Part shown: positions 8,400-42,109 of the stretch, piece after piece
Numbering within the stretch: the first letter of the stretch is position 1
How the letters are laid out: every line of letters starts with the position of its first letter
Assembly: GCA_963823665.1 (NCBI GenBank)
Contig: CAWGMQ010000010.1
Location: 288,001-352,000 of the forward strand
Direction of reading: 5' to 3'
Source: an uncultured Planctomycetota bacterium
GTDB lineage: Bacteria; Planctomycetota; Planctomycetia; Isosphaerales; Isosphaeraceae
DNA: 64,000 bases
The notes under the pieces: generated by a model
Database searches by the model: none
The model's input: the letters and a program-made list of their open reading frames with translations, nothing else
Told to the model about the DNA's origin: nothing
Translations under genes and position numbers: made by a program

Positions 8400-8566
8400 A
8401 TTGTCGGGAGTCGACATGAGACAACCGACCCGCGGCTCCCGGAGATGATCTGAATTTGTCGGATGACTGGACGAAGGGCAGCTCGGCAATCCCGGGTGGT
8501 CCGTCGAAAAGTAAGCCGGCGTGGTCGAGGACCTTGAGGGTTCTCGACCACGCCGGCTTTTTTTTT
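8400..8566 (+). ncRNA. Candidate cis-regulatory attenuator leader, copy A
   Basis: 5' hairpin GGGAG..CTCCC, conserved core GTCGGATGACTGGACGAAGGGCA..GTCCGTCGAAAAGTAAGCCGGC, ends in terminator. Confidence 0.8.
8515..8566 (+). terminator. Intrinsic terminator inside leader A
   Basis: 19-bp stem 8515-8533/8539-8557 followed by T9. Confidence 0.9.
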
Positions 8567-15252: not shown

Positions 15253-15698
15253 TGCGCGTGGGAATTGCCGCGGACCATGGAGGGTTTGCTCTCAAGGTAG
15301 AGATGGCTGAGGCCCTTCGGACCGCCGGGCATGAAGTCGTCGATTTCGGCGCACGCATCCTGACTTCGGGGGATGACTACCCCGATTACGTTGTACCCCT
15401 GGCTCTGTCGGTGGCAGAGGAGAAAGTCGAACGTGGCGTGGCCTTTTGCGGGAGTGGCGTGGGAGCGTCCGTCGCCGCCAACAAGGTGCCCGGCGTTCGT
15501 GCCGGTCTGATCCACGACGTTTACTCGGCGCACCAGGGAGTCGAAGACGACAACATGAACATGCTTTGCATGGGTGGACGGGTAATCGGCCCGGCGCTGG
15601 CGTGGGAACTCGTCCAGGCGTTCGTGGCCGCCCGCTTCAGCGGAGCCGAACGCCACCAGCGCCGTTTGGCGAAGGTGGCGGCCCTGGAGAACGACTGA
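15252..15698 (+). CDS. rpiB: Ribose-5-phosphate isomerase B
   Basis: DHGG, DYPD, CGSGVG, ANKV, RHQRR. Confidence 0.92.
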   Translation: MRVGIAADHGGFALKVEMAEALRTAGHEVVDFGARILTSGDDYPDYVVPLALSVAEEKVERGVAFCGSGVGASVAANKVPGVRAGLIHDVYSAHQGVEDDNMNMLCMGGRVIGPALAWELVQAFVAARFSGAERHQRRLAKVAALEND

Positions 15699-15743
15699 GG
15701 AGAATATCGCCGTGGAAGCGCAGATGCGGTCCCGGACGCGAAG

Positions 15744-15978
15744 ATGAAACCTCGCGATCAAGGACAATTCACTTTCGATCGTCCTGTTCGTGCTCTTTCT
15801 CATCTGCATTTCCGCACATAGCATTGCCGGCCGGTGGCTCCAAAACGATATTCTTGCGGCACACGGGCGCTCGTCGGTCGGCTACTGGCGTTTTCTGTCA
15901 ACCGGCGCCTTCCTTGAGGGCCTCGCCTCAAACTGGCAGGCAGCCGTCCTTCAAACAACCGGCAAGGCGAACAAATAA
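15744..15978 (+). pseudogene. Truncated membrane-protein remnant (DUF6766-like)
   Basis: KDNSLSIVLFVLF...FLEGLASNWQA; ATG out of frame and C-terminus missing. Confidence 0.4.
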
Positions 15979-16064
15979 TCAGCACGGATCAAGACGTCGG
16001 TTCTCTTGACACGGCGAGCCACTTGCGCGTCAGCGGCCCGATCAGGTCGAAGGTCCGCATGGTG

Positions 16065-16439
16065 TCAGCGCTTGGCTTGGTGGCAAGGGGGTGGCTCGGC
16101 CAGCGTCACGACAACAAACGCTTCGCCGGTTACCGTGCTGATGTCGTGGTGCAGACTGACCACCTTGACGTCGGTGACATCCTGGACCATCGCTTGTATG
16201 AGCGGCTTCGCCGTTTCGATCAGTTGGGTCCGTATTTGCTTGAGCAAATCCCTCCCCCTATCGGATGGGAATTTGGCAAGGTGCTGTTCGGCGGGTGTCA
16301 ACATGCCCTGAAGCCGGACGACGATGAAATCCCCGAGCAGGAAGGCGCGAATGTTTTTGGGGCCTCGGCCCCTGTATTCCTGCTCAAAGCGACTCATCAC
16401 GTCGCAGATGGCGGCCTCGATTTCTCCTTGGGTTTTCAT
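16065..16439 (-). CDS. DUF2294 (MpsC/YbcI-family) protein
   Basis: KTQGEIEAAI, GRGP, RLQGMLTPAEQ.L, LHHDISTVTGE; 4-nt overlap with upstream kinase. Confidence 0.85.
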   Translation of the reverse strand: MKTQGEIEAAICDVMSRFEQEYRGRGPKNIRAFLLGDFIVVRLQGMLTPAEQHLAKFPSDRGRDLLKQIRTQLIETAKPLIQAMVQDVTDVKVVSLHHDISTVTGEAFVVVTLAEPPPCHQAKR

Positions 16440-18406
16440 CGTGCCGGCAACTCCGAGACGGTCGCCAAGATTTGCAGCACCTTCCCGAAATCGCCCGGCT
16501 TGACCAGGTGGTGATCGAACCCCGCATCGAACGAACGCTGAAGGTCGCTCACCCCTCCGTACCCGGTCATGGCGACAAGCACAGCATTCTGGAGAGCGGG
16601 CTGCTGACGTATCTGCTTCGCGACCTCAAAGCCATTGAGCCCCGGCAAGCCGATGTCGAGCAGCACCACGTTCGGCCGGTAATCGAGGGCCGCTTCCAGG
16701 ACGGCTGAGCCGTCGTAAGCCATCCTGACATCGTGGCCGGATTCATTCACCAGCAATGCCAGGGTCGTCACGGTATCCACGTTGTCATCCACAACCAGCA
16801 CGCGCAAGGATTGTCCGCTCGATTGGGCCGACTGGGGAGACGGCGATGCCGGCTGCTGCTGGGGAGGTGACACCACCGGCAGACGCACGACGAACTCGCT
16901 GCCTTGCCCCAAAACGCTAGTTGCCGCCACCGTTCCACCGTGCATTTCCACGAGGCGCTGCACCAAAGCCAGTCCGATGCCCAACCCACCTTGCGAGCGG
17001 TCCAGGGACCGTTCCCCCTGGGTGAACAGGTCGAAGATGCGGGGCAGTGTTTCGGGGGCGATGCCGACGCCCGTATCCCGCACACGCAGCACCGCCTCCG
17101 TGCCCTCTTGTTGCAACGTCAACCAAACGTGACCGCCTCGCTCCGTGTACTTGGCGGCATTGGTCAGCAGGTTCACCATCACTTGTTCCAACCGGGCAGC
17201 GTCGGCGTTTAGCCAGATCGCTTGCGCGGGCAGCGACACGGTGAGTTCATGCTTGCGCAGGTCGATCAGCGACCGGACGGTCGCAACCGCGTGTTCCACG
17301 ACGACGCCCACGGCAATCGGTTCTTGATGAAGCTGAATCCTTCCGGTGGTAATGCGAGAGACTTCGAGTAGTTCATCAACGATCTGCGTCAGTTGTCCGA
17401 CCTGACGCTCAATGATGCTGGCGGATTGCTGAAGTATTGGGTTCTCGATACCGTGCAGTCGATTCCGATTGCTGTGCAGGCGCAGGAGAAGAGCGGCATT
17501 GAGGATGGGGGCAAGGGGGTTGCGAAGTTCATGGCTGAGCATCGCCAGGAACTCATCTTTGCGGCGGTCCAGGTCGGCGAGTGCCGCTGCCTGCTCCTGG
17601 GTCAGTCGCTGCAAGCGTCTGCGTTCGGTGATGTCGCGGATGTTGCATTGAACGACCTGGTGTTGGTTCTCCGCATAGACGTTGCTGACGAACTCGACCT
17701 CGACGTTTTGGCCACTTCTGTTCTCGAGGGGCAGGTTTTCATAGCGGACGTAGCCCGTCTTTTGCAGTTCCCGGTAGGCGGCCTGGCTCTCTTCGATATG
17801 GCGGAACAGACCGATCTCCCAGAGTTCCTTGCCCAGGAACTCATCGTGCGAGAAGCCCAGCAAGGTCGTCATGAACGGGTTGGCGTCGATCACCTTACCC
17901 GTGAGTGCGTCGAGGATGAGGATGCCGTCCTTGGCCATCTGGAACAGCCGCCGATACCGGACTTCGGAGTGCGCCATGGCGGCGTCCGTCTGCCGGCGAG
18001 CAGTAACGTCCTCGATGGCTAGAAGGACCAATTCCGGCTCGTTGCTCTCCGGCGGGAACCTGCGGGCGTTAAGCAGCATTGTCCTTTGCCCGAGAGTCGG
18101 GAAGGTGTGTTCAACCTCGACGTCTTCAATGGGATGGCTGTTGGAAAGAACTTGGGGCAGCAACGTCCGCAGTTGGGGGATGTCCCACTGACCGTTGCCC
18201 AGGTCATAGACGAAGCGGCCCTCCGTGTCCTCTTTCGAGGCATGGAAATCCCGGTAGAACGCGCCGTTGGCGGTGCGTACCCGCAGGCTCTTGTCGAGAA
18301 CCACGAACGGCTCTCTCAGGGTCGCGATGATGTTTTCAGCGTACGCAAGGGCGAGCTGCAGTTCTGTTGTGCGCTTGTCAACGTTCGTTTCCATGCCGTT
18401 TCCCAT
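16436..18406 (-). CDS. Cytoplasmic PAS-PAS hybrid histidine kinase/receiver
   Basis: Two PAS domains, H-box LSHELRNPL, NLLTNAAKY, DTGVGI, GLGIGL, REC VVDD..LLDIGLP. Confidence 0.9.
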   Translation of the reverse strand: MGNGMETNVDKRTTELQLALAYAENIIATLREPFVVLDKSLRVRTANGAFYRDFHASKEDTEGRFVYDLGNGQWDIPQLRTLLPQVLSNSHPIEDVEVEHTFPTLGQRTMLLNARRFPPESNEPELVLLAIEDVTARRQTDAAMAHSEVRYRRLFQMAKDGILILDALTGKVIDANPFMTTLLGFSHDEFLGKELWEIGLFRHIEESQAAYRELQKTGYVRYENLPLENRSGQNVEVEFVSNVYAENQHQVVQCNIRDITERRRLQRLTQEQAAALADLDRRKDEFLAMLSHELRNPLAPILNAALLLRLHSNRNRLHGIENPILQQSASIIERQVGQLTQIVDELLEVSRITTGRIQLHQEPIAVGVVVEHAVATVRSLIDLRKHELTVSLPAQAIWLNADAARLEQVMVNLLTNAAKYTERGGHVWLTLQQEGTEAVLRVRDTGVGIAPETLPRIFDLFTQGERSLDRSQGGLGIGLALVQRLVEMHGGTVAATSVLGQGSEFVVRLPVVSPPQQQPASPSPQSAQSSGQSLRVLVVDDNVDTVTTLALLVNESGHDVRMAYDGSAVLEAALDYRPNVVLLDIGLPGLNGFEVAKQIRQQPALQNAVLVAMTGYGGVSDLQRSFDAGFDHHLVKPGDFGKVLQILATVSELPAR

Positions 18407-18562
18407 CTCCTGCCGTTTTCGGAGCTTAGCCCTTCGATCTAAAGGCTGTAACCAGAAAGTACATCTTATCGGGGGATCGGATGTGCCTCAACTAACGCCG
18501 ATCCTATGCCCGCCTGGACGTCTTTGACCAAGGCGGATCCTTCGGTTGGGGAAGGTGAGGAT

Positions 18563-19102
18563 TCAAGATGTCGGCGGCTCGTAGACATTGATGTGGTCCG
18601 GCCCTTGGGCGGCTAGCAGGCTGTGCGCGCGGGCCACGACCTCCGGAATGGACCGGACGATTACGAGAAACTTGCCCCCCTTGACGTGATTCTCGTAGTT
18701 GATCGCCCGGTCCTTCGGAACACCCCAGCCTACGAGCGCGCCCGCGAGGGTGCCCAGCGCGGTTCCCGCCAGCGCCCCTTCGATGCCCGCCAAGAGCGCC
18801 GCCGCGAGTGGACCGGCGACCCCGACGAGGCCCAGTCCCGGCAAGACCAGGAATCCCGCTCCAACGCACAGGCCGAACAGCCCCCCGAACAAGGACCCGC
18901 TTTCCGCCCCGGCCGTGACATAGTCGCCGCGGCTGACGAAGCCGCATGGCACCTCGGTCACCTGAGAGCCGCGGCCCACGATCGAGAGATCGTCGAGCGC
19001 GAACCCACCTACGTGGAGCTGCCGCACCGCGCGCTCGGCGGAAGCATGGTCGGGATAAACCGCCACGACGCTGGAAACAATCGCAGTTACCGCCTGGCTC
19101 AT
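18563..19102 (-). CDS. General stress membrane protein (divergent DUF1269/YflT-like paralog)
   Basis: VVAVY..H..AE.AV, LSIVG, PGLG..AGPL, YE.HVKGGKFLV. Confidence 0.65.
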   Translation of the reverse strand: MSQAVTAIVSSVVAVYPDHASAERAVRQLHVGGFALDDLSIVGRGSQVTEVPCGFVSRGDYVTAGAESGSLFGGLFGLCVGAGFLVLPGLGLVGVAGPLAAALLAGIEGALAGTALGTLAGALVGWGVPKDRAINYENHVKGGKFLVIVRSIPEVVARAHSLLAAQGPDHINVYEPPTS

Positions 19103-19151
19103 GATCGATTCCTTTTGTCGGGATTACTGCCCGGTTGGACGCCAGTGAAAG

Positions 19152-20633
19152 TCAGTTGGTTTCAGGGATCTCCTTCGCTTCCGTGACGGGACCGCCTTGA
19201 GTGAGGATCGACAGGTTTCCCAGGATCATCTGCTCCGTGCCGTCGATCGGCGTCCAGGGTTCATCGCCGCTGGACGCCGCGTCGGAGCCTGAGCCGCGGC
19301 GATTGGTGACCTCGATCCACTCGCCGTCGCTGACCCCGGTCTCTACTTCGATCCGTTTCGCATAGCCGTTCTCGCAGATCCAGCAGAACGACCTCTCCCC
19401 GACCTGCAATATGGTCTTGTCGCCGAGGTGCATGAGCGCCGAAACCGGCAGAGCCCACACGCCGGGCCGCTCGATTGTCACTTTGGCGTAAGCGTACATC
19501 CCTGGAAGGAGCTGGCTGCCTGGGTTGGTCAGGTCGATCTCGGCGCGGAGAGTGCGGCTCTCGATGTCGAGCGCCCATGCCGTTCGCGTGACGGTGCCGG
19601 GAATCGGCTGGTCGCGGAACGCCCTGATGAGCACGGTGGCCTTGGAGCCAACGTGGACGTAATTCGCGTAATGCTCCGGGATGTCGACGAAGATGCGGAC
19701 GATGTCCGTGCGGTCGACCACATAGATCGGCGCGGCGGAGCCACCGGGCGAGAGGTAGGGACCGCGGCGATTGGCCGAGGGGTCGCCCGTGCTGGGCAGG
19801 ACGAAATCGAAGGTATTGGCATTACGGGCCACGATGACGCCGTCATAGGGCGCGGGAAGTACGAGGTAATCCACCCAGGCCTGGAGCCGCTTCTCTTCGC
19901 TCTGGGCGAATTTCAGGTCGGCTTCGGCGACACCGACGTCCACGTTGGCCTCGGATAGCGCGGCCCGCTCGGAAAGCAGTTCGGCGCCGGCCTTCAGGAC
20001 CGTTGCGGCCGCCGCGTCCCGGGACGCGACGGACGCCTTCCAACGATTCGTGGTCTGGAGGACATCCTGGGGATTGACCACGCCCCGCTTGAGCTCCTTG
20101 TCCAGCCGCTTGGTCTCCGAGTCCCAGCGCTCGGCCTCGGCCCGATAGCCGGCGTGTTCCGCCCGGGCTTCCTCAAGCCGCGCCTGGGCCGCCTCGACGT
20201 CGGCCTTGGCCACTTTCACGGCCGCCTTGGCCAGCTCGATCTGCTCCAGGTCGAGCGCGACTATCGCCTTCTTCGTAGCGTGGTCCTCAACCAGCTCGGG
20301 CGCGAAGAGGTTGGCGAGCACATCGCCTTTCTTAACCTTGTCGCCGATGTCTACGATCCAATTCAGGATGTAAGCGTTCATTTTCGGATAGACCGACGAG
20401 CGCTCGTAGCTCTGCGTGAAGCTGGGCTGCCCGATGACCCGGACGATATCCCGGACCTGCGGCTGGACCAGCCGCACTGTCGGGGGTCTGCCCACACTCG
20501 TATAGTGGGACTCCGCCTTGTGGTGGCACCCCGACGGCACCAGGACGGCCAGAAGACCGAACGGGAGCTGGAACACCAGGCGGCGGCAGTGCACCAGGCT
20601 ATCCGAACGGGCGGAGAACGTGAATCGGCGCAT
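19152..20633 (-). CDS. RND efflux periplasmic adaptor (MFP) 1
   Basis: Lipobox-like VPSGC, lipoyl halves VDIGDKVKKG and APYDGVI, coiled coil, RTLRAEIDL, LLPGMY. Confidence 0.85.
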   Translation of the reverse strand: MRRFTFSARSDSLVHCRRLVFQLPFGLLAVLVPSGCHHKAESHYTSVGRPPTVRLVQPQVRDIVRVIGQPSFTQSYERSSVYPKMNAYILNWIVDIGDKVKKGDVLANLFAPELVEDHATKKAIVALDLEQIELAKAAVKVAKADVEAAQARLEEARAEHAGYRAEAERWDSETKRLDKELKRGVVNPQDVLQTTNRWKASVASRDAAAATVLKAGAELLSERAALSEANVDVGVAEADLKFAQSEEKRLQAWVDYLVLPAPYDGVIVARNANTFDFVLPSTGDPSANRRGPYLSPGGSAAPIYVVDRTDIVRIFVDIPEHYANYVHVGSKATVLIRAFRDQPIPGTVTRTAWALDIESRTLRAEIDLTNPGSQLLPGMYAYAKVTIERPGVWALPVSALMHLGDKTILQVGERSFCWICENGYAKRIEVETGVSDGEWIEVTNRRGSGSDAASSGDEPWTPIDGTEQMILGNLSILTQGGPVTEAKEIPETN

Positions 20634-20646
20634 CACTGGCCCCCCA

Positions 20647-22194
20647 TCAAGGTAGGCGCCTCGCCAGGCGCGAAGTGTCAGGAAGTCGGGGATCGCCCGG
20701 GGACAGTCGTGTGCCTGGATCATGATCCGGCGCGGGCGCCTCGATCGCGATTTTCGTCGCCACCGTCGCGGCGGTGATCTCAACGGCGCCGCCCTCGGTG
20801 AGCGCTGACAAATCGCCGAGGATCACCTGTTCCTTGCCGTCGATCTGCGCCCAGGCAACCGAGTCGCGGGGCGCCTCCCGTGGGACCGGGGGCCGGCGAT
20901 TGCTGATCTCGACCCATTTGTCGTCGCTGACGCCCGTCTCGACTTCAGTCCGCACTGCCTTGCCGTTTTCGTAGAGCCAGCAGAAGGTCTGGTCGCCGTT
21001 ATGAACGAGTGCCGAAAGCGGCAGCGCCTGGACGTCCGGACGCTCAATGATCACCTTGACGTAGGCGTACATCCCGGGCAGGAGCTGGCCTTCAGGGTTG
21101 CTAAGGTCGACCTCGGCGCGGAGCGTTCGGCTCTTCATGTTCAGCGCCCAGGACGTGCGCGTGACGGTGGCCGGCAACTCGGTGTCGCGGAAGTCCCGGG
21201 CAAGCACGCTCGCCTTTGTCCCGATTTTTACGAAGTTGGCGTCTCGTTCCGGGATGTCGAGAAAGATCCGGACGATGTCGAGTCGCTCGACCACGTAGAT
21301 CGGCGCGGCCGTGCCGCTGGGCGAAAGGTTGGGGGAGAGGTAGTAGGCCGTGGGATCGCCTGTAGTGGGTTGGACAAAGTCGAAAGTGTTGGCGTTGCGG
21401 GCTGAGATCACGCCGGTGAAAGGGGCATTTAGCGTGAGATAGTCCACCCAGGCTTTCGCATATCTCTCTTCGCTGTCGGCCACCTTCAGAGTGGCTACCG
21501 CGACCCTGACGGCGACCTGCGTCTTTTCGAGCTTGGCCCGCGCGCTGAGCAATTCCGCCTTCGCCCTCTTGATGGTCGCTTTCGCCTTGTCCAGCGCAGA
21601 GATGCTCGATTTGAGTTGATTGGTCGACTCGAAGAGGATCAAGGGATGGATCACGTGCAGGGCGACCTGTCGAGCCAGCCGATCGACCTCCGTTTGCCAG
21701 CGGTCGACCTCGGCATTGTACTTATTGAGGATCGCCTCGGCCGCTGCAAGGCGCGCCTCGGCCGCGTCGACGTTGGCCCGGGCCACCTCGACCATCTCTT
21801 TGGCCAGCGATATCCGTTCTCGGTCGAGCACGACGGCTGCCTTCTTCGTTCCGAGCTCCTCGACTAGCTCGGGCGCGAACAGGGTGGCAACCACGTCGCT
21901 TTTCTTTACCTTGTCGCCGATGTCGACGATCCACTTCGTTATGTAGGCTGTCGGCTTGGGATAGATCGACGTGCGCTCGTAGCTCTCGATGAAGCTGGGC
22001 TGGCCCACGACCCGCACGATGTTCCGAGACTGCGGCTGGATCAGCCGCACGCTCGGCGGCTTCGTGTTGCCTTCGAATTCGATCTTGTGTTCGCTACGGC
22101 AGCCAGACGCCGCCAGGGTGACAATGAGCCAGGGCACCAGCCGACGGCGGCCGGCGGCCCGATCCGAAATCGCGGGCGAGAGAATCCGGCGCAT
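20647..22194 (-). CDS. RND efflux periplasmic adaptor (MFP) 2
   Basis: Lipobox LAASGC; same MFP motifs; paralog of 19152-20633. Confidence 0.85.
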   Translation of the reverse strand: MRRILSPAISDRAAGRRRLVPWLIVTLAASGCRSEHKIEFEGNTKPPSVRLIQPQSRNIVRVVGQPSFIESYERTSIYPKPTAYITKWIVDIGDKVKKSDVVATLFAPELVEELGTKKAAVVLDRERISLAKEMVEVARANVDAAEARLAAAEAILNKYNAEVDRWQTEVDRLARQVALHVIHPLILFESTNQLKSSISALDKAKATIKRAKAELLSARAKLEKTQVAVRVAVATLKVADSEERYAKAWVDYLTLNAPFTGVISARNANTFDFVQPTTGDPTAYYLSPNLSPSGTAAPIYVVERLDIVRIFLDIPERDANFVKIGTKASVLARDFRDTELPATVTRTSWALNMKSRTLRAEVDLSNPEGQLLPGMYAYVKVIIERPDVQALPLSALVHNGDQTFCWLYENGKAVRTEVETGVSDDKWVEISNRRPPVPREAPRDSVAWAQIDGKEQVILGDLSALTEGGAVEITAATVATKIAIEAPAPDHDPGTRLSPGDPRLPDTSRLARRLP

Positions 22195-25100
22195 CAAGGA
22201 CCTCCGGGTGAGAAAAGTGCGGGCCCCGGCGAATGTCCGCCATCAGGGGACCGGCGGTGTTCGTCCGTTTGCGGCTGAGACAAGGCCGAATCGGCAGCGT
22301 CTTCATCGTCAGACATGCTCTGGCCGGCGGCGGCAGGCGGGACGAAGTGCTCGCTGTCGGGATCGTCCGGATGAATCGACGACGAGACGGCCTTCTTCTT
22401 GCCGATCACGATCGCAAAGATTGACGGGACGATGAGCAAGGTGGCCACCGTCGACATCACCAGCCCGCCGATCACCGCGCGGCCGAGCGGGGCCTGCATC
22501 TGGCTCCCGCGCTCCAAGGCCAGCGCCATCGGCACCATGCCGGTGGTCATCGCGCAGGCCGTCATCAGGATCGGCCGCATACGCTCGCTGGCACCGAGCA
22601 CCGCCGCCTGCGCTGACCGGTTTCCGGCCTTCCAGTGATCGTTGGTGAAAGCAACGAGCATGACCGAGTTCGAGACCGAGACGCCCAGGCTCATGATCGA
22701 GCCCATGAACGACTCGATGTTCAGAGATGTGTTGGTCACATAGAGGATGATCGCGATGCCGGCCAAGACACCCGGCACGGCGCTGATCGATATCAGGGCC
22801 AGGCGCAGCGACTGGAAATAGGCGGTCAAGAGCACGAGGATCACGAACACAGCGACCCCCAGCCCGATCCCGAGCGACTCGAACATCTCGTCCATCGGCG
22901 GCAGCTGGCCCATGGTCTCGACCCGCACGCCGCGGGGCGGATCACCGACGGCGGCGAGCGCCTGGGCGACCTGCCGTGACGCCCGGCCCATGTCCTCGCC
23001 CTCGACATTCGCCGTCAGCGTCAGGTAGCGCTGTGACATGTCGCGGTCGATCTCGCCGGGCCGCACGCCCCTCTCGACCGTGGCCACGTCACGGATCATC
23101 AGATTGACCAGCGGGTTGATCGATTCCAGCGGCAACGTCTCGATGCCTTCTGGCTTGTCGATCCGCAACGGCGGTATCTGGAGCTGCACCAGGTAGTCGA
23201 AACCCGTCTTCTCGTCGATCCAGTAGTTGAGCGAGGCGAAGCGGGTCGACGCCGTCGCCATGACGATGGCATGGGCCACGTCGGAGACCTTGGCTCCGGA
23301 GAGCCCCGCCTTTTCGCGGTCGATGGTGACCTCGACGGTCGGGTAGTCGAGCGACTGCACGAACTCGACGTCGCGGAGGAACGGGATGCGCCTCATGTTG
23401 GTCGCGATCTTTTCTGCGTGCTGCCGCACCAGCTTCAGATCGGTGCCGACGATCCGGACCGCGATCGGCGTCAGCGAGCCGAAGCTCATGACCTTGGTGA
23501 CCATATCGCCCGGTTCGAAACCGAAGGTCGACAGCGCCGCTTGCTTTTCCGCCTCCTCCTTGGCCAGGCCACCCTGCTCCAGCCGCTTGGCCAGCCATGG
23601 AATCACCCGCTTGGGCAGGACCTTGCGCAGGCGCTCGCGGAACTCGTCGAGCTTGATCCCGCTGTCCTCCGTGAGCGCGATCCGCAACTGGCCGTCGTCG
23701 GGCCCGCGCATGAACAAGACCATGTTGTCGATGCCGAAGTTTGTAGCGACCTGGCCGACGTAGCCCATCGTGATCTTCATATGCTCGGGCGTTGCCTCGC
23801 GCTCGATCTCCTCCAAGCACTTGATCGCCATCTGGCGCGTCAACTCGAAGTTCGAGCCGGGCGGCGGCCGGAACCGCAGCACGAATTCCCCCGAATCGAT
23901 CTGCGGGAACAGCTCGGTGCCAACCTGCAACCCGACCAGCCAGAGGATCAGGCCGCACGCCCCGAGATATCCCGGCACCACAAGCCAGCGCAGGCGAACG
24001 AGCCAGGTCACAACTTTGGTATAAGCATCGAGAAACCGATCGAACAGCCCGCGCTTTTTGCCATGCCCCTTGTTCTTGACCATGTGCACGCACAGGATCG
24101 GTACCAACATGATCGTGAGCAGATACGCCGAGATCATGGCGAACCCAACCGCCAGTGTCAGTGGCATGAACAGCGACCGGAGCGGGTCTTTCATGATCAG
24201 CGCCGGTGTGAATACGGACAGGATGCATAACAGTGCCAGCAGGATCGGCACGGCCGTGGCGTTGGCCGCGCCCAGCACCGCCCTGGCAATCTTGGGCGTT
24301 TGCCCCATCTGCACATGCAAGTTCTCGATGTTTACCGTCGACATATCGACGAGGATGCCGATCGACAGCGCCATGCCGCCCAGCGACATGATGTTGATCG
24401 TGTTGCCCGTCAGCCAGAGTCCGACGAACGACCCCATGAGCGCCAGCGGGATGGTGGCCACGACGACGAGCATGCTCCTCAAGTCGCCGAGGAACAGGAA
24501 GATCATGAGTCCGGTCAAGCCCGCGCCAATCAAACCTTCTGTAGCGACGCTCTCGACGGCCGCCACCACGGCGGGCGACTCGTCGAACTCGAAGTTGATC
24601 GAGACGTCCTTGGGGACCGCGTCGCGGAACATCTTCATCGACTTGTGGACGTCGGCCACGACGGTCAACGTCGATCCAGTGTCTTTCTTGATGACCGGCA
24701 GGTAGACCGCGTTCTTGCCGTTGACGAGCGCGTATCCATACGTGATATCGACATAGTCCTGGATAGTCGCCACGTCGCGGAGGTAGACGTTCCTCTCCAT
24801 CCGGAGCGGAATATCGCCCAGCTTCTGGATGTCGCCCACCGTCGCGTTATTGGCGACCATCGGCATCGAGTCGTGGATGTAGACGTTCCCCGCGGGGATG
24901 ACGGTATTCCCAGTCGCCAGGGCATCAATGACCTGCTGCGGCGTCAGGTTGTAGTCCAGGAGCTTGTGCGGGTCGACGTTGACGACGATCGACCGCATGT
25001 TCGGGCCGAACGGCGAGATCGCCACCGTGCCGGGGACGTTCTTTTGCACCAGCGGCCGGATGACGTTATTGGCCAGGTCCCCCATCGCCCCCAGCGAGGT

Positions 25101-25541
25101 GACGTCGCTCTCGAACACCAGGTAGCCGACCGGGACGGAGCCTGAGTCCATCCGCATGATCATCGGCGGCAAGGTCCCCTTGGGCATCCACGACATCGCC
25201 CGGTCGGACATCGCCACGACCTGGGCCATCGCCTGGCCCATGTCGGTCCCGGGGAAGAACGAGAGCTCGCACAAGGCCACCTGCTGGATGTTCCGCGTAT
25301 TGATATCCTTGATGCCATCGACGTACTGGAAATACAACTCGAGCTCATTGACGATGAAGCCCTCCATCTGGTCGGGGCTCATGCCGATGTAATCGAGGAA
25401 GACGTAAATCTTCGGGACGTTCAGCGAGGGGAAGATATCCACCCGCATCCTGGTGAAGCCCAGAAGGCCACCGCTGATCAGGGCCACGACCAGCATCATG
25501 ATCGTGATCGGGCGCCGCATCGCGAATGAAGTCGGGTTCAT
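22194..25541 (-). CDS. RND efflux permease 1
   Basis: 1115 aa; INIMSLGG, GILVDM, RMRPILMT, PLGRAVIGG. Confidence 0.92.
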   Translation of the reverse strand: MNPTSFAMRRPITIMMLVVALISGGLLGFTRMRVDIFPSLNVPKIYVFLDYIGMSPDQMEGFIVNELELYFQYVDGIKDINTRNIQQVALCELSFFPGTDMGQAMAQVVAMSDRAMSWMPKGTLPPMIMRMDSGSVPVGYLVFESDVTSLGAMGDLANNVIRPLVQKNVPGTVAISPFGPNMRSIVVNVDPHKLLDYNLTPQQVIDALATGNTVIPAGNVYIHDSMPMVANNATVGDIQKLGDIPLRMERNVYLRDVATIQDYVDITYGYALVNGKNAVYLPVIKKDTGSTLTVVADVHKSMKMFRDAVPKDVSINFEFDESPAVVAAVESVATEGLIGAGLTGLMIFLFLGDLRSMLVVVATIPLALMGSFVGLWLTGNTINIMSLGGMALSIGILVDMSTVNIENLHVQMGQTPKIARAVLGAANATAVPILLALLCILSVFTPALIMKDPLRSLFMPLTLAVGFAMISAYLLTIMLVPILCVHMVKNKGHGKKRGLFDRFLDAYTKVVTWLVRLRWLVVPGYLGACGLILWLVGLQVGTELFPQIDSGEFVLRFRPPPGSNFELTRQMAIKCLEEIEREATPEHMKITMGYVGQVATNFGIDNMVLFMRGPDDGQLRIALTEDSGIKLDEFRERLRKVLPKRVIPWLAKRLEQGGLAKEEAEKQAALSTFGFEPGDMVTKVMSFGSLTPIAVRIVGTDLKLVRQHAEKIATNMRRIPFLRDVEFVQSLDYPTVEVTIDREKAGLSGAKVSDVAHAIVMATASTRFASLNYWIDEKTGFDYLVQLQIPPLRIDKPEGIETLPLESINPLVNLMIRDVATVERGVRPGEIDRDMSQRYLTLTANVEGEDMGRASRQVAQALAAVGDPPRGVRVETMGQLPPMDEMFESLGIGLGVAVFVILVLLTAYFQSLRLALISISAVPGVLAGIAIILYVTNTSLNIESFMGSIMSLGVSVSNSVMLVAFTNDHWKAGNRSAQAAVLGASERMRPILMTACAMTTGMVPMALALERGSQMQAPLGRAVIGGLVMSTVATLLIVPSIFAIVIGKKKAVSSSIHPDDPDSEHFVPPAAAGQSMSDDEDAADSALSQPQTDEHRRSPDGGHSPGPALFSPGGP

Positions 25542-28500
25542 TTCCCATCCCTCCCGTCCTGGCTGTCAAGGTCGGTGTGCGGCTGAAACGAACCTGAATC
25601 GAAAGCGTCCTCTTCGTCGGAGGTGCTCTCGGCGCCGGCGGCCGGCGGGTCGTAGTGGGTACTATCGGGATCGTCCGGATGAATCGACGGCGAGACGGCC
25701 TTCTTCTTGCCGATCACGATCGCAAAGATTGACGGGACAATTAGCAAGGTGGCCACCGTCGACATCACCAACCCGCCGATCACCGCGCGGCCGAGCGGGG
25801 CCTGCATCTGGCTCCCGCGCTCCAAGGCCAGCGCCATCGGCACCATGCCGATGGTCATAGCGCAGGCCGTCATCAAGATCGGCCGCATACGCTCGCTGGC
25901 ACCGATTACGGCCGCCTCCGCTGCCGGCTTTCCGGCCTTCCAATGTTCGTCGATAAACGTCACGAGCATCACCGAGTTCGAGACCGAGACGCCCAGGCTC
26001 ATGATCGAGCCCATGAACGACTCGATATTGAGTGAGGTATTGCTGAAGTAGAGGATGGTCGCGATGCCCGCCAAGACCCCGGGCACCGCTCCAATCGATA
26101 TCAAGGCCAGGCGCGGCGATTGGAAGTAAGCCGTCAAGAGCACGAGGATCACGAACACGGCGACTCCTAGCCCGATCCCGAGCGACTCGAACATCTCGTT
26201 CATCGGCGGGAGCTGGCCCATGGTCTCGACCCGCACGCCGCGGGGCGGATCACCGACGGCGGCGAGCGCCTGGGCGACCTGCCGCGACGCCCGGCCCATG
26301 TCCTCGCCCTCGACATTCGCGGTCAGCGTCAGGTAGCGCTGTGACATGTCGCGGTCGATCTCGCCGGGCCGCACGCCCCTCTCGACCGTGGCCACATCGC
26401 GGATCATCAGGTTGACGAGCGGGTTGATCGATTCCACCGGCAAGGTTTCGATGTCTTCCGGCTTGTCGATCCGCGATGGCGGTATCTGGAGCTGCACCAG
26501 GTAGTCGAAACCCGTCTTCTCGTCAATCCAGTAGTTGAGCGAGGCGAAGCGGGTCGACGCCGTCGCCATGACGATGGCATGGGCCACGTCCGAGACCTTG
26601 GCTCCGGAGAGCCCCGCCTTTTCGCGGTCGATGGTGACCTCGATCGTCGGGTAGTCGAGCGACTGCACGAACTCGACGTCGCGGAGGAACGGGATGTGCC
26701 TCATGTTGGTCGCGATCTTTTCTGCGTGCTGCCGCACCAGCTTCAAATCGGTGCCGACAATCCGGACCGCGATCGGCGTCAGCGAGCCGAAGCTCATGAC
26801 CTTGGTCACCATATCACCCGGCTCGAAACCGAAGGTCGACAACTTCGCTTGCTTTTCCGCCTCCTCCTCGGCCAGGCCACCCTGCTCGAGCCGCTTGGCC
26901 ATCCAGGGAATCACTCGCTTGGGCAGGACCTCGCGCAGCCGCTCGCGGAATTGGTCGAGTTTGATCCCGCTGTCCTCCGTGAGCGCGATCCGCAACTGGC
27001 CGTCGTCGGGCCCGCGCATGAAGAGCACCATGTTGTCGATGCCGAAATTCGGGGCAACCTGGCCGACGTAGCCCATCGTGATCTTGATATGCTCGGGCGT
27101 TGCCTCTCGCTCGATCTCCTCCAAGCACTTGATCGCCATCTGGCGCGTCAACTCGAAATTCGAGCCGGGCGGCGGCCGGAACCGCAGCACGAATTCCCCC
27201 GAATCGATCTGCGGGAACAGCTCGGTGCCGACCTGCAAGCCCAGCACCCAGAGCACCAGGCCGCACGCCGCAAGATAGGCTGGCACGGTCAGCCATCGCA
27301 GCCGGACGAACCAGCCTACCGCCCTTCCGTAGACCTTGAGGGCCCGGTCGAATAGCCCGGGCTTCTTCTCGCCATGGCCCCCGTGGTGCTTCAGCAGGGC
27401 CACGCTCATGATCGGCACGAACATGCTCGAGAGCAGGTACGACGAGATCATTGCAAACCCGACGCCCAAGGTCAGCGGCATGAACAGCGACCGGAGCGGG
27501 TCGGTCATGATGAAGGCCGGGATGAACACCGACAGGATGCAGAGCAGCGCCAGGAGACGCGGCACGGCCGTGGCGTTGCTCGCGCAGCATCGCCATTGCG
27601 ACGTTCGGCGCGTGCTCCATCTGGACGTGCGTGTTCTCGATCGTCACCGTCGCCTCGTCGACCAGGATGCCGATCGACAGCGCCATGCCGCCCAGTGACA
27701 TGATGTTGATCGTGTTGCCCGTCAGCCATAGCCCGACCAACGACCCCATGAGCGCCAGCGGAATGTTGGCCACCACGACGAGCACGCTCCTCAGATCGCC
27801 GAGGAACAACAGGATCATTAGCCCCGTCAATCCCGCGCCAATCATGCCCTCGGTGGCCACGCTCTCAACCGCTGCCACCACGGTTGGCGACTCGTCGAAC
27901 TCGAAGTTGATCGAGACGTTCTTGGGAACGGCGTCGCGGAACAACTGCATCGACTTATGGACGTCGGCCACCACGGTCAACGTCGATCCCGTGTCTTTCT
28001 TGATGATCGGCAGATAGACCGCGTTCTTGCCGTTCACGAGCGCGTATCCATACGTGATATCGACATAGTCCTGGATAGTCGCCACGTCGCGGAGGTAGAC
28101 GTTCCTCTCCATCCGGAGCGGAATATCGCCCAGCTTCTGGATGTCGCCCACCGTCGCGTTGTTGGCGACCATGGGCATCGAGTCGTTGATGTAGACGTTC
28201 CCCGCGGGGATGACGGTGTTCCCTGTCGCCAGGGCATCAATGACTTGCTGCGGCGTCAGGTTGTAGTCGAGGAGCTTGTGCGGGTCGACGTTGACGACGA
28301 TCGACCGCATGTTCGGTCCAAACGGCGAGATCGCCACCGTGCCGGGGACGTTCTTTTGCACCAGCGGCCGGATGACGTTATTGGCCAGGTCCCCCATCGC
28401 CCCCAGCGAGGTGACGTCGCTCTCGAACACCAGGTAGCCGACCGGGACGGAGCCTGAGTCCATCCGCATGATCATCGGCGGCAAGGTCCCCTTGGGCATC

Positions 28501-28853
28501 CACGACATCGCCCGGTCGGACATCGCCACGACCTGGGCCATTGCCTGGCCCATGTCGGTCCCGGGGAAGAACGAGAGCTCGCACAGGGCCACCTGCTGAA
28601 TGTTCCGTGTATTGATATCCTTGATGCCATCAACGTACTGGAAATACAACTCGAGCTCATTGACGATGAAGCCCTCCATCTGGTCGGGGCTCATGCCGAT
28701 GTAATCGAGGAAGACGTAAATCTTCGGGACGTTCAGCGACGGGAAGATATCCACACGCATCCGGTTGAGGCCCAGAAGGCCGCCGCTGATCAGGGCCACG
28801 ACCAGCATCAGGGTCGTGACTGGGCGCCTCATGGCGAAGCCGGTCGGATTCAC
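25538..28853 (-). CDS. RND efflux permease 2 (frameshift near 27582)
   Basis: GTG start with GGAG SD; near-identical to permease 1; 2 nt missing in a (CG)n run at LR[A]SNATAVP. Confidence 0.88.
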
Positions 28854-28888
28854 AGTCCACACTCCCTGTCTGCTGCGCGACCGCGGCA

Positions 28889-29926
28889 TTATTCTTCAGG
28901 ACGGCTCGGTCCTTCGTCTGTCGGGTTGCCTGCTTTGCTCCCGCCCCTCGAGGAGGTGGGCGCGGCGGACCCGGCTAGAGGGGTGAGACCGGGGATCCGA
29001 TCGCCATTCGAGTGAGCTTGCGCCGCGTCGAGGCGCTCCCGCAGAGTCTTGAGCTCCTCCTTGAGGGCCTCCAGTTGATTGTCGAACTGTCGGTGTGCCG
29101 CCGGCAGCGCGGCGACTTCAGCCATCGCATGAGTCAGCTCGCTCAGCTTTATCTGCATTTTTCGCAGCGCCGGCGGCGTCGCGTCGGTGGGCAGTGTTAC
29201 ACCGTCCACTCGCTCGCGCAAGTGGTCGACCCGGCGCGACAGGTCCGTGATTAGCTGCTTGAGCATATCCGCGTCTTTGGCCGGCGAGACGCCGGGAATC
29301 GAGTTCTTGGTCGATGCCTGCGCGTTCGATCCCTTGCCCGACTCCTTACTTTCCGCACTGCCGGACTTCTTTTCAGGGCCCGAATCCTTCGTCGAGCCCG
29401 AATCGCTCTTGCCCTGCGACTCTTTCGACTTGGGTCCCGCGGACTTCGGCCCGAAAAAGTACGAGTAGCCCATCGCGCCGATCACACCGCAGGCCAAGGC
29501 GACGCCAGCCGTGATCAGAAGATTCTTCATCATCGAAGGCTGCTGTTGCCGAGATCCGTCTTCGCGAAGGTGTTCTTGATCCTGCACTCGATCTGCGTCA
29601 TGCTGGCGAGCCTGCTGACCGCCTCGATTCTTACTGTGGCCGTTCTGGTCCTGAGGGCGGTCTTGAGAATTGCCCTGTTCCTTGTGAGCGAAGACCGTCC
29701 GGACTCCCGTGGCGCCGAGCAGGTCCGACTCGCTCACCTGGGTCGTCTCGACGCTGATGGTGGCGTCCGGGTTAAGCTTCCGGTCTGACGGGTGCTCGAC
29801 CACCTTGTCAATAACCGGATCAGCGGTGTCGATGGTGATCGGCGCTGGGTCCTCGTCAGGAAGCTTGCCCGCCTGTGAGTGCTCGTCAACCCGGTGGGAT
29901 TCGTCGGTCGAATTGGATTTGTCCAT
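28889..29926 (-). CDS. Single-TM hypothetical protein with disordered N-terminus and coiled coil
   Basis: ATG at 29926 after GAGGG SD; TM LLITAGVALACGVIGAMGY; heptad-like C-terminal part. Confidence 0.7.
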   Translation of the reverse strand: MDKSNSTDESHRVDEHSQAGKLPDEDPAPITIDTADPVIDKVVEHPSDRKLNPDATISVETTQVSESDLLGATGVRTVFAHKEQGNSQDRPQDQNGHSKNRGGQQARQHDADRVQDQEHLREDGSRQQQPSMMKNLLITAGVALACGVIGAMGYSYFFGPKSAGPKSKESQGKSDSGSTKDSGPEKKSGSAESKESGKGSNAQASTKNSIPGVSPAKDADMLKQLITDLSRRVDHLRERVDGVTLPTDATPPALRKMQIKLSELTHAMAEVAALPAAHRQFDNQLEALKEELKTLRERLDAAQAHSNGDRIPGLTPLAGSAAPTSSRGGSKAGNPTDEGPSRPEE

Positions 29927-29966
29927 CGGTTCGTCCCTCGTGAGTGTCACCACCCGTCGCCGACGC

Positions 29967-30130
29967 AAACAAAAAACCGGCGTGGCGGAACACCCTGAGG
30001 TATTCGACCACGCCGGCTTACTCGTCAACGGGCCCCCCGGCAAAGCCGGAGTGCCCTTTATCTAGTCGTCCGACGAAATCAGCTCATGTCTTGGTGGGAT
30101 CTGCCTGCTCGCTCGCGCAGGCTATCCATT
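29967..30130 (-). ncRNA. Candidate attenuator leader, copy B (with terminator)
   Basis: Sense GTCGGACGACTAGATAAAGGGCA..GGCCCGTTGACGAGTAAGCCGGC; stem followed by T6GTTT. Confidence 0.8.
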
Positions 30131-30138
30131 CGGTCTCC

Positions 30139-30195
30139 ATTGTCCTATTTGGAGCGTAAATAGCAAGGCCATTGTTGCTATTTCTCACATGAAAA
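30139..30195 (-). promoter_or_regulatory. Promoter TTGCTA-N16-GACAAT plus upstream TTTTCATGTGAGAAATA box
   Basis: Both elements identical in copy C (32609-32665) while the spacers diverge. Confidence 0.6.
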
Positions 30196-30598
30196 TCTTC
30201 AGACTCTTCGGGTAGTCGCGCATGCGGGCATGAGCTTTCTCGCCGGCCTTTTCGTCGGCGAGGGCAAGTTCGAGCAGACCAGAGACAATCTCGATCTGGA
30301 GCGATGGTTTCGCTTGCCCAAGAGTCACGAGCGGCGAATCCACGGTCATCCCCACGCGGGCATTCGAATCGTTCTCCGCAGGCATCGTCGGCCAGGCCGA
30401 TCGGGAATCCCGTCGAATCTCCCGATCGAGCGTCTCGCATCGACAAATCAAATTATTCTAAATATTTTTTGCGTAGAATCTGCATATTCATTACTTTGGG
30501 CGTGGGAATCGCGTGAGAAGCAAGCTGCGGTCCAGAACGCGACGGGGGGATTTCCCCCTTCGGAATTGTTCCGCGGGTTCACAACACGGAGTGCAGCG

Positions 30599-31354
30599 AT
30601 GATTCGGTTCCTCAGATTCTCCCCGAGAGCGATCAAAGCGACAGCGCTGGCGATGACGGTCCTGGCGGCCTCGGCCTCCTCGACATTCGCTCATGGTGGA
30701 GGCGGTGGCGGTCACGGCGGTGGCAGTCACGGCGGTGGCGGCCGCATGGGCGGCTACGGCGGTGGTTATCGAGGCGGCTACGGTGGAGGCGGCTACGGCG
30801 GTGGTTATCGAGGCGGTTACAACGGCTATGGATACGGCCTCTTCGGTCTCGGGATGGGTGGATACGGCTACGGCGGCTATGGCAGCGGGTATGGCTACGG
30901 CGGCTATGGCAGCGGGTATGGCTACGGCGGCTATGGCAACGGGTATGGCTACGGCGGCTACGGCAATGGATATGGCCTCTTAGGCGTCGGCCTGGGTGGA
31001 TACGGCTACGGCGGCTATGGCAACGGGTACGGCTACGGTGGCTACGGCAATGGATACGTCGGGAACAATTACTATTCGAGTGGCTACAACTCGGCTCCGG
31101 TCGTCAACCAGGCTTCCTCGGCCCCGTACTTGACCACTCAGACCTACGAGCCGGGCGACGGCTACCGTTACCCGCTTTATTACAACCCGGCCACCGGGGG
31201 TCACATCTATTACCCTTCGGCTCCGGTCGTCAACCAGGCTTCCTCGGCCCCGTACTTGACCACTCAGACCTACGAGCCGGGCGATGGCTACCGTTACCCG
31301 CTCTACTACAACGCGGCCACCTCGCGTTACATCTATTACACGGTCGCCCGCTGA
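30599..31354 (+). CDS. Secreted Gly/Tyr-rich low-complexity repeat protein
   Basis: GGAG SD, signal peptide ending TFA-H, GGYG repeats. Confidence 0.75.
   Translation: MIRFLRFSPRAIKATALAMTVLAASASSTFAHGGGGGGHGGGSHGGGGRMGGYGGGYRGGYGGGGYGGGYRGGYNGYGYGLFGLGMGGYGYGGYGSGYGYGGYGSGYGYGGYGNGYGYGGYGNGYGLLGVGLGGYGYGGYGNGYGYGGYGNGYVGNNYYSSGYNSAPVVNQASSAPYLTTQTYEPGDGYRYPLYYNPATGGHIYYPSAPVVNQASSAPYLTTQTYEPGDGYRYPLYYNAATSRYIYYTVAR
30860..31051 (+). repeat. 27-bp coding tandem repeat (GYGYGGYG[S/N]), 4+2 copies
   Basis: GGRTAYGGCTACGGYGGCTAYGGCARY units. Confidence 0.85.
31091..31338 (+). repeat. 126-bp (42-aa) coding tandem duplication
   Basis: SAPVVNQASSAPYLTTQTYEPGDGYRYPLYYN starting at 31091 and 31217. 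Confidence 0.9.
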
Positions 31355-31408
31355 TCGAGCGGAAAAGGGGGACGGCTGGCAACCCCGCCGTCCGACGGCA
31401 CGAGCACG

Positions 31409-32299
31409 CTACCGGCCGTTCCCTCTCGCCGTTACCGGAGTTGTTTCGACTCCCGCGATCTTCTCGGATTGGGCCGGCTCCGTCATTGTCGGGGATGCGT
31501 CCGCGGGCCGCCCATCAACCTCGGCACCCGCGCCGTCCCGGTGATGCTTCAGGAATGGCCCCAACAGTTCCAGCGGCAACGGGAAGATAATAGTGGAATT
31601 CTGATCTGAGGCCACGTCCGCGAGAGCTTGGAGGTAGCGCATCTGCATCGCCATGGGATAGGGAGTCATGATCTGGGCGGCTTGCCGGAGTTTGTCGGCG
31701 GCCTGGAACTCCCCCTCGGCGTTGATAACCTTGGCGCGCCGTTCGCGTTCGGCCTCGGCCTGCCGCGCCATCGACCGCTTCATCGCCTCGGGGAGGTCCA
31801 CGTCCTTGACTTCCACGACGGAGACCTTCACCCCCCACGGCTCGGTGTGCCCATCGATGATCTCTTGCAAGCGGCGGTTCACTTTCTCCCGCTCAGTCAA
31901 GAGGTCATCGAGCTCCGCCTGACCCAGCGTGCTGCGCAATGTAGTCAAGGCCACCTGGGAGGTGGCGAACAAGAAATCGGCCACTTCCAAGACCGATCGC
32001 ATCGGATCGACGACCCGGAAATAGAGCACGGCGTTGACACGGACCGAGACGTTATCCCGGGTGATGATGTCCTGAGGCTCGATGACTCTGGTGATGGTCC
32101 GCAAGTCGACGCGCATCATGCGATCGATCGGCCAGAAGACCATGATCAGACCCGGTCCCTTGGGCTCGGGAATGACCCGGCCCAGTCGGAAGACAACCCC
32201 GCGCTCGTATTCGTTCAGGACGCGAATGCAGGAAAACAGGTACAGGGCGGCCAATGCGAGGACGCTCCCCAAGGCCATTGCGGTCTCGATGATCAACAT
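31409..32299 (-). CDS. SPFH/stomatin (slipin) family protein
   Basis: [43 protein letters not shown]. Confidence 0.9.
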
Positions 32300-32437
32300 G
32301 GCTGAACCTCCCAAAAATGGAATCTGATGCGCAATTGCTCGCAAGCGCCGGCCGCTTCGGCGATGTGTTGCGCCCGGGCAGAACTCGATTTGTCCATCGG
32401 TTCGTTCCTCGTAAGTGTGATCGTCTTCGGTCCACGC

Positions 32438-32600
32438 AAAAAAAACCGGCGTGGTCGAAGACCCTGAGGTATTCGACCACGCCGGCTTACTCGTCAACGG
32501 GCCCCCCGGCAAAGCCGCAGTGCCCTTTATCTAGTCGCCCGACGAAATCCGCTTATGTTTTGCTGGGATTTGCCCGCTCGCTCACGCAGGCTATCCATAT
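32438..32600 (-). ncRNA. Candidate attenuator leader, copy C (with terminator)
   Basis: Same core as copy B; stem followed by T8. Confidence 0.8.
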
Positions 32601-32608
32601 CGAAGGCC

Positions 32609-32665
32609 ATTGTCCTACCTTGGGGGTAAATAGCAAGGGAGGTTTTTGTATTTCTCACATGAAAA
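32609..32665 (-). promoter_or_regulatory. Promoter TTGCTA-N16-GACAAT plus TTTTCATGTGAGAAATA box
   Basis: Matches 30139-30195. Confidence 0.6.
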
Positions 32666-32832
32666 GCTCCAGATTGATTGGTGATTATCGATTCAGTCTC
32701 GATCGTGATCGCTCGCACGCACTGGGTGCGGCCGCCGATCAACTAGGCAGACGCGCTCAAAGTCGCAGTGCGAATGTTGCGTCGGTCAACATTCCCGGTG
32801 GCGATCCGGTGTCAACGTTTCCGGCCAGCAAA

Positions 32833-32872
32833 AGGAATAGACTTGCTTTCCTCTCGACGGAGCGCCTACCAT
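32833..32872 (+). promoter_or_regulatory. Sigma70-like promoter of leader D
   Basis: AGGAATAGAC-TTGCTT-N18-TACCAT, matching copy A. Confidence 0.65.
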
Positions 32873-32881
32873 GACGAGTAA

Positions 32882-33044
32882 TGTGCGGGAGTGAGGATGG
32901 CACAGCCGCCCGTCGGCTCCCGGGAATGATTTGAATCTGTCGGATGGCTAGACGAAGGGCAGGCCCGGTACTCCGGGTGGCCCGTCGAAGAGTAAGCCGG
33001 CTTGATCGAGGACCTCAGGGTTCTCGATCAAGCCGGTTTTTTTT
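32882..33044 (+). ncRNA. Candidate attenuator leader, copy D (with terminator)
   Basis: GTCGGATGGCTAGACGAAGGGCA..GGCCCGTCGAAGAGTAAGCCGGC; stem with compensatory changes versus A; T8. Confidence 0.8.
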
Positions 33045-33222
33045 CATTACCGCTGACCTGGTACGGTTGAAGGTACAAACTTCTAACGCGATCGAAGAGC
33101 TCGATTCAGAATGGAGAGTACACGCCGCTTCGTCTACAAAAACGCGGAAGGAAGCCGTCAATCGTGGAATGTGTTCCCGGGTATCCGGGAGTTGTTGTCG
33201 AATAAATACGGGAGTACTGTCG

Positions 33223-37519: not shown

Positions 37520-40493
<2,974 letters not shown>

Positions 40494-40501
<8 letters not shown>

Positions 40502-42106: not shown

Positions 42107-42109
42107 GCG

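Follow-up and report, generated by a model that had tools for sequence, protein, structure and literature searches.

What does a small DUF2294 protein do at the end of a long gene block that is headed by a structured RNA leader? The window (the whole stretch of DNA that was analysed, 64,000 nucleotides) contains an intact ORF of 124 amino acids that is assigned to PF10057 (MpsC/DUF2294), with planctomycete proteins as its closest relatives (Table 1). A preliminary description had noted that this gene overlaps the stop of a hybrid kinase gene by 4 nt and closes the minus-strand block begun behind leader B. Both points are confirmed, the first by Pfam and the ORF coordinates and the second by the ORF order: the run starts with an ORF at 29926, DUF2294 is its last gene and the next gene, rpiB, is convergent. 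Its further remarks that DNA-binding regulators and MpsAB/DabAB transporters are absent also hold for the ORFs scanned (74 of the 232 listed), which gave neither a DNA-binding domain nor a DabA/DabB-type match; DabA was not found in the host genome (91.9% complete) either. Within this scope the window copy has no mpsAB/dabBA beside it, whereas a transporter accessory would be expected to be co-located with these genes.

Missed in the preliminary description were the other family members of the host genome, which has seven PF10057 matches. The family falls into two classes, class I (which includes the window copy) and class II, a distant paralogue; five of the seven matches are full-length class I. 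Elsewhere on this contig a second cluster (G000:C10:2424700-2489100, loci L038-L042) comprises five of the matches, four of class I and one of class II, along with 13 leaders; the canonical cassette of divergent class I and class II genes is among them.

Table 1. Features of the window, with positions counted from its first letter.
Feature	Position	Strand	Basis
DUF2294/MpsC class I protein, kinase-coupled subclade Ib, candidate RNA-binding antiterminator	16065-16439	-	PF10057 122.4 bits (cut-off 23; profile positions 1-110 of 111); subclade support 99; R25, R42, K67, R70 retained
Hybrid histidine kinase PAS-PAS-HisKA-HATPase-REC, candidate input	16436-18406	-	Pfam; stop overlaps DUF2294 start
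Putative internal promoter of the kinase-DUF2294 pair, TTGAGG-17 nt-TAAGAT, inferred	18463-18491	-	By eye; 8/12 matches, below scan threshold; homologous stretch in L051
Leader B block: unknown protein, two RND genes (one split, two frames), two membrane-fusion genes, YflT	18563-29926	-	
Leader A, heads YflT-ppk2-manA-tkt-rpiB	8455-8564, core 8455-8523	+	R1 75.8 bits; Pfam
Leader B, antiterminator hairpin overlapping intrinsic terminator	29969-30077, core 30009-30077	-	R1 87.1 bits; both states folded
Leader C	32438-32546, core 32478-32546	-	R1 77.7 bits; repeat family D9
Leader D, heads BON/zwf/N-ATPase/xfp/glycogen run	32936-33044, core 32936-33004	+	R1 67.2 bits; Pfam
Short remnant of class II DUF2294 start after leader C, weak	32296-32397	-	Class II profile positions 4-30, iE 0.036

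All four leader cores of the window run into a terminator, and the host genome contains 26 leader copies without a weak tail, about half of them in the second cluster. The conserved part is an irregular hairpin of 69 nt, as derived from 83 diverse copies. Covariation is evident: 14 of 21 pairs change on both sides and 93% of the cells pair, a result that none of 500 shuffles equals and no slid control reaches. Two core helices exchange C-G and U-A across phyla (27/20 and 49/18 in 77 sequences). The foot reads GG-N-RG-AY on the 5' side and RU-AR-N-CC on the 3' side, and a purine-rich 3x3 internal loop lies between two short helices. The basal helix is built in part from the initial bases of a strong intrinsic terminator's 5' arm. 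When folded at full length, 63 of 67 leaders have the terminator as their MFE structure; the antiterminator lies a median 7.2 kcal/mol higher (in these totals the row of leader A is mis-indexed, so at least one row is wrong). With the terminator as default fold the leader is OFF by default, and something must hold the hairpin.

At gathering score, Rfam 15 gave no match in the window and none at the leaders of 15 other loci; for leader A we obtained only sub-threshold hairpin matches. The four window leaders are members of an undescribed RNA family. Soil metatranscriptomes contain 6-7% of the words of 29000-33400, as contigs in which neither ends nor levels are visible; related leaders occur there too, followed by diverse sequences.

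In planctomycetes the leader is closely tied to DUF2294. We fetched 80 loci by protein similarity only, and 75 of these carry the leader (138 matches in 1.11 Mb, against none in shuffled sequence). The arrangement depends on the class: all 61 class II genes have a same-strand upstream leader (41 within 180 nt), class I outside subclade Ib has a divergent leader at no more than 432 nt in 61 of 68 loci, and class I has a same-strand upstream leader in three of the 80 loci only. A fixed divergent class I/class II cassette is present in 57 of the 80.

The co-occurrence of leader and protein, which the preliminary description had proposed as a check, also emerges from whole genomes, although only 25-33 candidates were scored in each genome and known positives escaped the search, kin are not independent and the positives of models R2 and R3 are largely their own training loci. 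Model R1 matched 4 of 14 DUF2294-positive against 0 of 137 negative genomes in a phylum sample; in a class sample of 150 Planctomycetia genomes the corresponding figures are 15 of 33 and 1 of 117. Of the ten positives missed by R1 in the phylum sample, nine have on reading a shorter variant right after the gene, and the tenth is on a contig of 1.9 kb. In the class sample R3 adds 13 positives, 12 of which are its own training loci, so that the total of 28 of 33 is partly by construction; on the negative side, 2 of 117 genomes have a credible leader. One of the two (G234, a closed genome with no DUF2294 detected) has a degenerate leader with a broken basal pair and an imperfect terminator, and the other (G262, 130 contigs, no DUF2294 match) carries a variant that looks intact and precedes carbonic anhydrase. 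Three genomes (G180, G169, G248) have DUF2294 without a leader being found, and in G155 the leader precedes carbonic anhydrase on a different contig from its DUF2294. DabA is present in 101 of the 150 class genomes and DUF2294 in 33, which indicates that the leader tracks the protein and not the target. Furthermore, the RNA variants track the protein clades in a tree (quick search, 126 columns).

Some matches in DUF2294-negative genomes were rejected: an R2 match in G007 lies inside an ORF, and the six weak R3 matches that were inspected (out of 11) are all ordinary-looking terminators or within ORFs. Separately, two planctomycete-like loci (L047, L090) stem from bins labelled Alphaproteobacteria and archaeon, by mis-binning or transfer.

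A similar linkage is seen far outside the planctomycetes. In Acetoanaerobium and Anoxybacillus records the core is located directly 3' of the DUF2294 gene, before an MFS gene and sbtA (one leader per record, both in the training set of the model). A core-plus-terminator pattern was fixed on these cases before it was tested on 80 new metagenome loci, which had been fetched with a Bacilli-led alignment. Among the 70 loci with room, 42 have the pattern downstream on the same strand within about 470 nt, and none has it on the opposite strand. The raw matches over the 80 loci number 71, against 0-6 in five shuffles; 12 matches (spurious, nested or duplicate) were removed before alignment A6. Many of the same sites are recovered by R1, even though this model is planctomycete-only. 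In a Bacillus-like locus (L189) the core precedes dabBA. PF10057 also matches in B. subtilis, used as a control, and two DUF2294 loci are on viral contigs. DUF2294 and the leader are thus tightly linked across several bacterial lineages and phyla. This comparison strongly supports the main idea of the preliminary description, DUF2294 as candidate trans-acting factor of the leaders, and also its view that DUF2294 is a regulator rather than a transporter subunit.

The linkage has its exceptions. The preliminary description had proposed to look for the same fold at mpsA leaders; the two Staphylococcus mpsA leaders both have a terminator and match neither model. In the available part of PMC6689103, deletion of mpsC leaves growth of S. 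aureus in air unaffected and mpsA falls under 5% CO2. MpsC is accordingly not a needed activator of mpsAB in this species, which fits the missing core. For the fdhD-linked DUF2294 paralogues of Bacillus no leader was found.

Several loci and records deserve a brief mention. Neither the leader nor the class I signature is present in a distant Bacillota group (L172, L181, L179) whose DUF2294 genes lie by fdhD/formate dehydrogenase or ABC genes. The Anoxybacillus DUF2294 gene has a second, different terminator-containing leader upstream of itself (L169:8830-9000, plus strand). In L323:145-1749(+) a broken DUF2294 is followed by an ArsR regulator, a carbonic anhydrase and a SulP transporter, without leader; possibly RNA control was replaced by a repressor here. 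The records OR845004.1, OR845000.1 and NZ_CP154629.1 are labelled phage or plasmid and look chromosomal.

The genes behind the leaders give an indication of what is controlled. In the distant set 51 of the 59 first downstream ORFs were scanned, yielding 14 GTP-PEPCK, 6 NuoL/DabB-like, 2 SbtA, 2 AIR carboxylase-like, 1 PEP carboxylase, 1 biotin carboxylase, 3 DUF4914 and 2 class II DUF2294 genes, with 7 unmatched; 26 of the 51 concern inorganic carbon. In L189 the NuoL/DabB-like gene is followed by DabA. A separate planctomycete clade (support 94) has the leader before dabBA, sbtA, beta-carbonic anhydrase and isocitrate dehydrogenase. The link of DUF2294 to CO2/bicarbonate supply is thus real across the family.

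The clade of the window copy differs. Here 47 of the 138 leaders lead to class II DUF2294, and 75 of the 87 other downstream ORFs were scanned without finding a carbon-uptake gene among them; the first genes include YflT, Band 7, ferritin, PRC, desaturase, HPr and PAS kinases, and in the host genome also CsbD, CsrA, BON and SpoIIAA-like genes. A single RNA core thus heads two unrelated regulons, inorganic carbon and stress, which a protein with a changed input would explain more easily than one ligand. Judged by its targets, CO2 sensing would fit other DUF2294 clades better than the window copy, because the leaders of the latter precede stress genes.

Individual target loci show some peculiarities. 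The run behind leader D includes a complete N-ATPase operon with AtpR (38563-45542, plus strand); Na+ riboswitches are known before N-ATPase genes in other bacteria. A CsrA gene behind a leader (L263:4597-4812, minus strand) links the switch to another RNA-binding regulator. In L168:580-2898(+) a class II-like DUF2294 is fused to the N-terminus of GTP-PEPCK, and the same locus has apparent tandem leaders near 350-440 and 458-543; in L156 and L160, too, PEPCK is preceded by a similar second element. A variant leader lies between DUF2294 and a 2-oxoacid:ferredoxin oxidoreductase operon in L195:6370-6446(+) and in L207, possibly a CO2-fixing target.

On the protein side, the predicted model (pLDDT 94.8) has the order alpha-beta-beta-alpha-alpha-beta-beta. 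Searches of the PDB by fold and by sequence gave no clear solved homologue (no Foldseek match at E<=0.001), NCBIfam has no match for the window protein, Pfam assigns PF10057 only, and the ESM Atlas with PF10057 excluded gave no usable match. The order alpha-beta-beta-alpha-alpha-beta plus one strand recalls RbfA and type II KH domains, and RbfA scores Z 5.7 (rmsd 3.7 over 87 aligned residues) and 4.5. These scores are in the range of chance arrangements and below the best rows (Z 6.9), which are unrelated folds, and no sequence match was obtained; the predicted likeness to RbfA is a hint only.

K67 and R70 are invariant in all 290 class I sequences of five sets, R25 is found in 288 (it was selected for in the metagenome set) and R42 in 274. 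In planctomycete class II these positions are substituted (K67Q in 56/59, R70H in 59/59, R42T in 59/59). The net charge of class I is about neutral (median -2 to +1), which counts against a plain RNA-binding surface. A REC domain is assigned to 36 of 89 longer homologues, though of seven that were inspected only two are true fusions with a linker. The other five (P0273-P0276, P0356) were rejected as REC fusions, since they look like a window-type kinase tail joined to DUF2294 by a frame change. In G003 a REC-DUF2294 protein follows an HWE kinase, and in G011 a class II-like domain is fused to PEPCK.

The RNA family, its covariation structure, the terminator overlap, the linkage, the regulons and the residue patterns are established. 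Building on these comparative data, we consider it probable that class I DUF2294 is an RNA-binding, trans-acting antiterminator of the leader family. The leader would fold during transcription into the long hairpin, of which the foot borrows the first bases of the terminator 5' arm. Unaided, the terminator would win (OFF). Active DUF2294, probably as a dimer, may bind the internal loop via its invariant basic residues and hold the hairpin, presumably giving read-through (ON). In most lineages the DUF2294 gene stands just before the leader and the likely input would be low inorganic carbon, given targets that supply or use CO2/bicarbonate. In one planctomycete clade, including the window copy, the switch appears rewired to a multi-copy stress and storage regulon. 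There class II, which lacks the basic residues, would be the first leader-controlled gene and likely acts as feedback damper or partner, while kinase coupling or REC fusion may supply the input.

Such a mechanism has parallels in known systems. The antiterminators BglG/LicT/SacY/GlcT act on RAT elements and consist of CAT and PRD domains. Likewise, the gene of the candidate regulator DUF2294 directly precedes its leader, the 5' arm of the terminator is overlapped by an irregular, internally looped hairpin (according to covariation and two-state folding), the default is OFF, and protein clades have matching RNA variants. In contrast, DUF2294 has neither CAT nor PRD (PF10057 only, 124 aa), the 69-nt core matches no Rfam family, and the targets are inorganic-carbon and stress genes instead of the sugar PTS. 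The ANTAR regulators AmiR/NasR/EutV have a helical-bundle output domain and twin stem-loop targets. DUF2294 resembles them as a small output domain that occurs alone, behind kinases or REC-fused, with a multi-copy leader regulon; coupling to two-component systems is apparent from the REC domains, the HWE kinase in G003 and the kinase overlap in 12 of 80 loci. It differs in that Pfam detects no ANTAR domain, the fold is alpha/beta and not a helical bundle, and the target is one long hairpin. S. aureus MpsC and B. subtilis YbcI belong to the same Pfam family and are linked to mpsAB/dabBA, whereas the window copy represents a kinase-coupled planctomycete subclade without transporter.

A more far-reaching reading, which we regard as possible though less likely than not, is that DUF2294 constitutes a previously undescribed RNA-binding fold with a direct CO2/bicarbonate sensor (for example at Lys67-Arg70) and antiterminates a cross-phylum inorganic-carbon regulon. 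It would then be the regulator so far missing for dabBA/mpsAB, sbtA, carbonic anhydrase and PEPCK in many non-photosynthetic bacteria. Planctomycetes would have made of it a termination-level master switch of general stress over dozens of operons, with the help of kinase coupling, fusion to REC and a paralogue blind to the RNA.

Among the competing explanations, indirect control survives best, though we deem it unlikely. DUF2294 would make, destroy or hold a small signal that is sensed by a riboswitch in the leader, or it would act via RNA polymerase or another RNA-binding protein. The same linkage would result, the protein is not basic, and the other invariant class I residues (E8, E51, E75, D99, S101, T102, E106, and mostly H97) beside K67/R70 could form an active or ligand site. 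Nevertheless, RNA variants that track protein clades are what direct contact predicts, the conserved RNA core amounts to about a dozen bases only, and no enzyme fold was matched.

Still less probable is a stand-alone riboswitch for bicarbonate, a PEP/oxaloacetate-like carboxylation metabolite, pH or Na+, with DUF2294 as co-inherited accessory. Na+-I (DUF1646) is a transcriptional ON riboswitch before N-ATPase genes in which the basal helix competes with the terminator. The leaders share this competition, a classic expression platform, and leader D has an N-ATPase operon behind it; on the other hand they have no Rfam match, their core is small and their distribution is tied to one protein family. 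The inorganic-carbon genes in the distant set, the tandem leaders, the G262 leader without detected DUF2294 and the dispensability of mpsC in S. aureus (in the available part of PMC6689103) would suit a riboswitch. Against it, class I genes precede the leader or diverge from it and are not under it, the leader is nearly absent from the 117 DUF2294-negative genomes, within the limited sensitivity of the search, despite the frequency of DabA, the same core heads a stress regulon without carbon-uptake genes, and the G234 relic has lost its basal pair.

We consider it improbable, to a greater degree again, that DUF2294 binds the leader with another sign or partner rule, such that class I promotes termination or acts as an obligate class I/class II heterodimer. 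The frequent divergent cassette and a two-domain homologue (P0272) would agree with a heterodimer, and the neutral deletion phenotype in air, as given in the accessible text of PMC6689103, with a repressor; yet it is the antiterminator form that is conserved while the terminator is the fold adopted by default, and at many distant loci class I is alone beside the leader. The accessory role in transport that the Pfam name implies, with the leader link as hitch-hiking, is largely refuted and very improbable: DUF2294 adjoins dabBA/mpsAB or sbtA in several loci, but it equally adjoins PEPCK, carbonic anhydrase and icd, forms REC and PEPCK fusions and is matched seven times in the host genome, where no DabA was detected, and MpsAB functions without MpsC (PMC6689103, available part).

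Returning to antitermination by class I DUF2294, it can be asked how the window copy itself is controlled. It falls in a kinase-coupled subclade (support 99) inside the stress clade (support 100), and a kinase directly precedes DUF2294 in exactly the 12 closest of the 80 loci, behind varied upstream DNA. Eleven of these 12 relatives have no same-strand upstream leader within 8 kb, and three have no leader at all. In L051 a stretch homologous to that around the promoter-like site also precedes the kinase, with different DNA further upstream; a promoter scan of 15600-33200 returned 4 sites against 3.7 expected, none of them before the kinase. From this comparison the kinase-DUF2294 pair is a module, probably with its own promoter. 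The positive feedback that the preliminary description expected in the event of co-transcription from leader B is not supported, as class I genes stand outside the leader-controlled unit and the pair probably has its own promoter. The minus strand gave no terminator call from YflT to the kinase, which would leave room for read-through from leader B. Given one same-strand leader among 12 relatives, a promoter-like site and no intervening terminator, leader B, at a distance of 13.5 kb, could possibly provide such feedback, though this is unsupported. The conserved feedback element may instead be class II, weakly represented in the window by the short remnant after leader C. That the window copy acts on the window leaders seems to us slightly short of an even bet.

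In the literature searched (with subscription journals outside its scope) no regulatory role was found for DUF2294/MpsC/YbcI/COG5609/PF10057. Term searches in the main texts of PMC11109978 and PMC8632094 gave no such motif; the supplements of PMC11109978 and PMC5737381, outside the search, might list it. The available portion of a B. subtilis preprint (10.64898/2026.09.08.750065) makes no mention of ybcI and describes how the operon is regulated as unexplored. The protein-RNA module is real and undescribed in the literature searched.

If the proposed antitermination is true, a widespread DUF that Pfam names as part of a transporter would gain a function, and a new RNA family would be joined by what is probably a new RNA-binding fold. 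Planctomycetes would possess a stress regulon that is controlled at the level of termination (26 leaders in the host genome). In many bacteria DUF2294 may turn on the genes of CO2 supply, and in planctomycetes stress genes. For the question how non-photosynthetic bacteria tune bicarbonate uptake to CO2, a cis element, a candidate factor and its residues can now be named.

Finally, two observations concern the window itself. Several genes are truncated or split between two frames, by assembly indels or decay: one RND gene (25538-28889, minus strand), tpi (50328-51136, plus), glycogen phosphorylase (51133-53690, plus), isoamylase (53678-55832, plus) and probably ackA (45599-46753). Between leaders B and C a gene for a Gly/Tyr-rich repeat protein (30600-31354, plus strand) contains internal tandem duplications.
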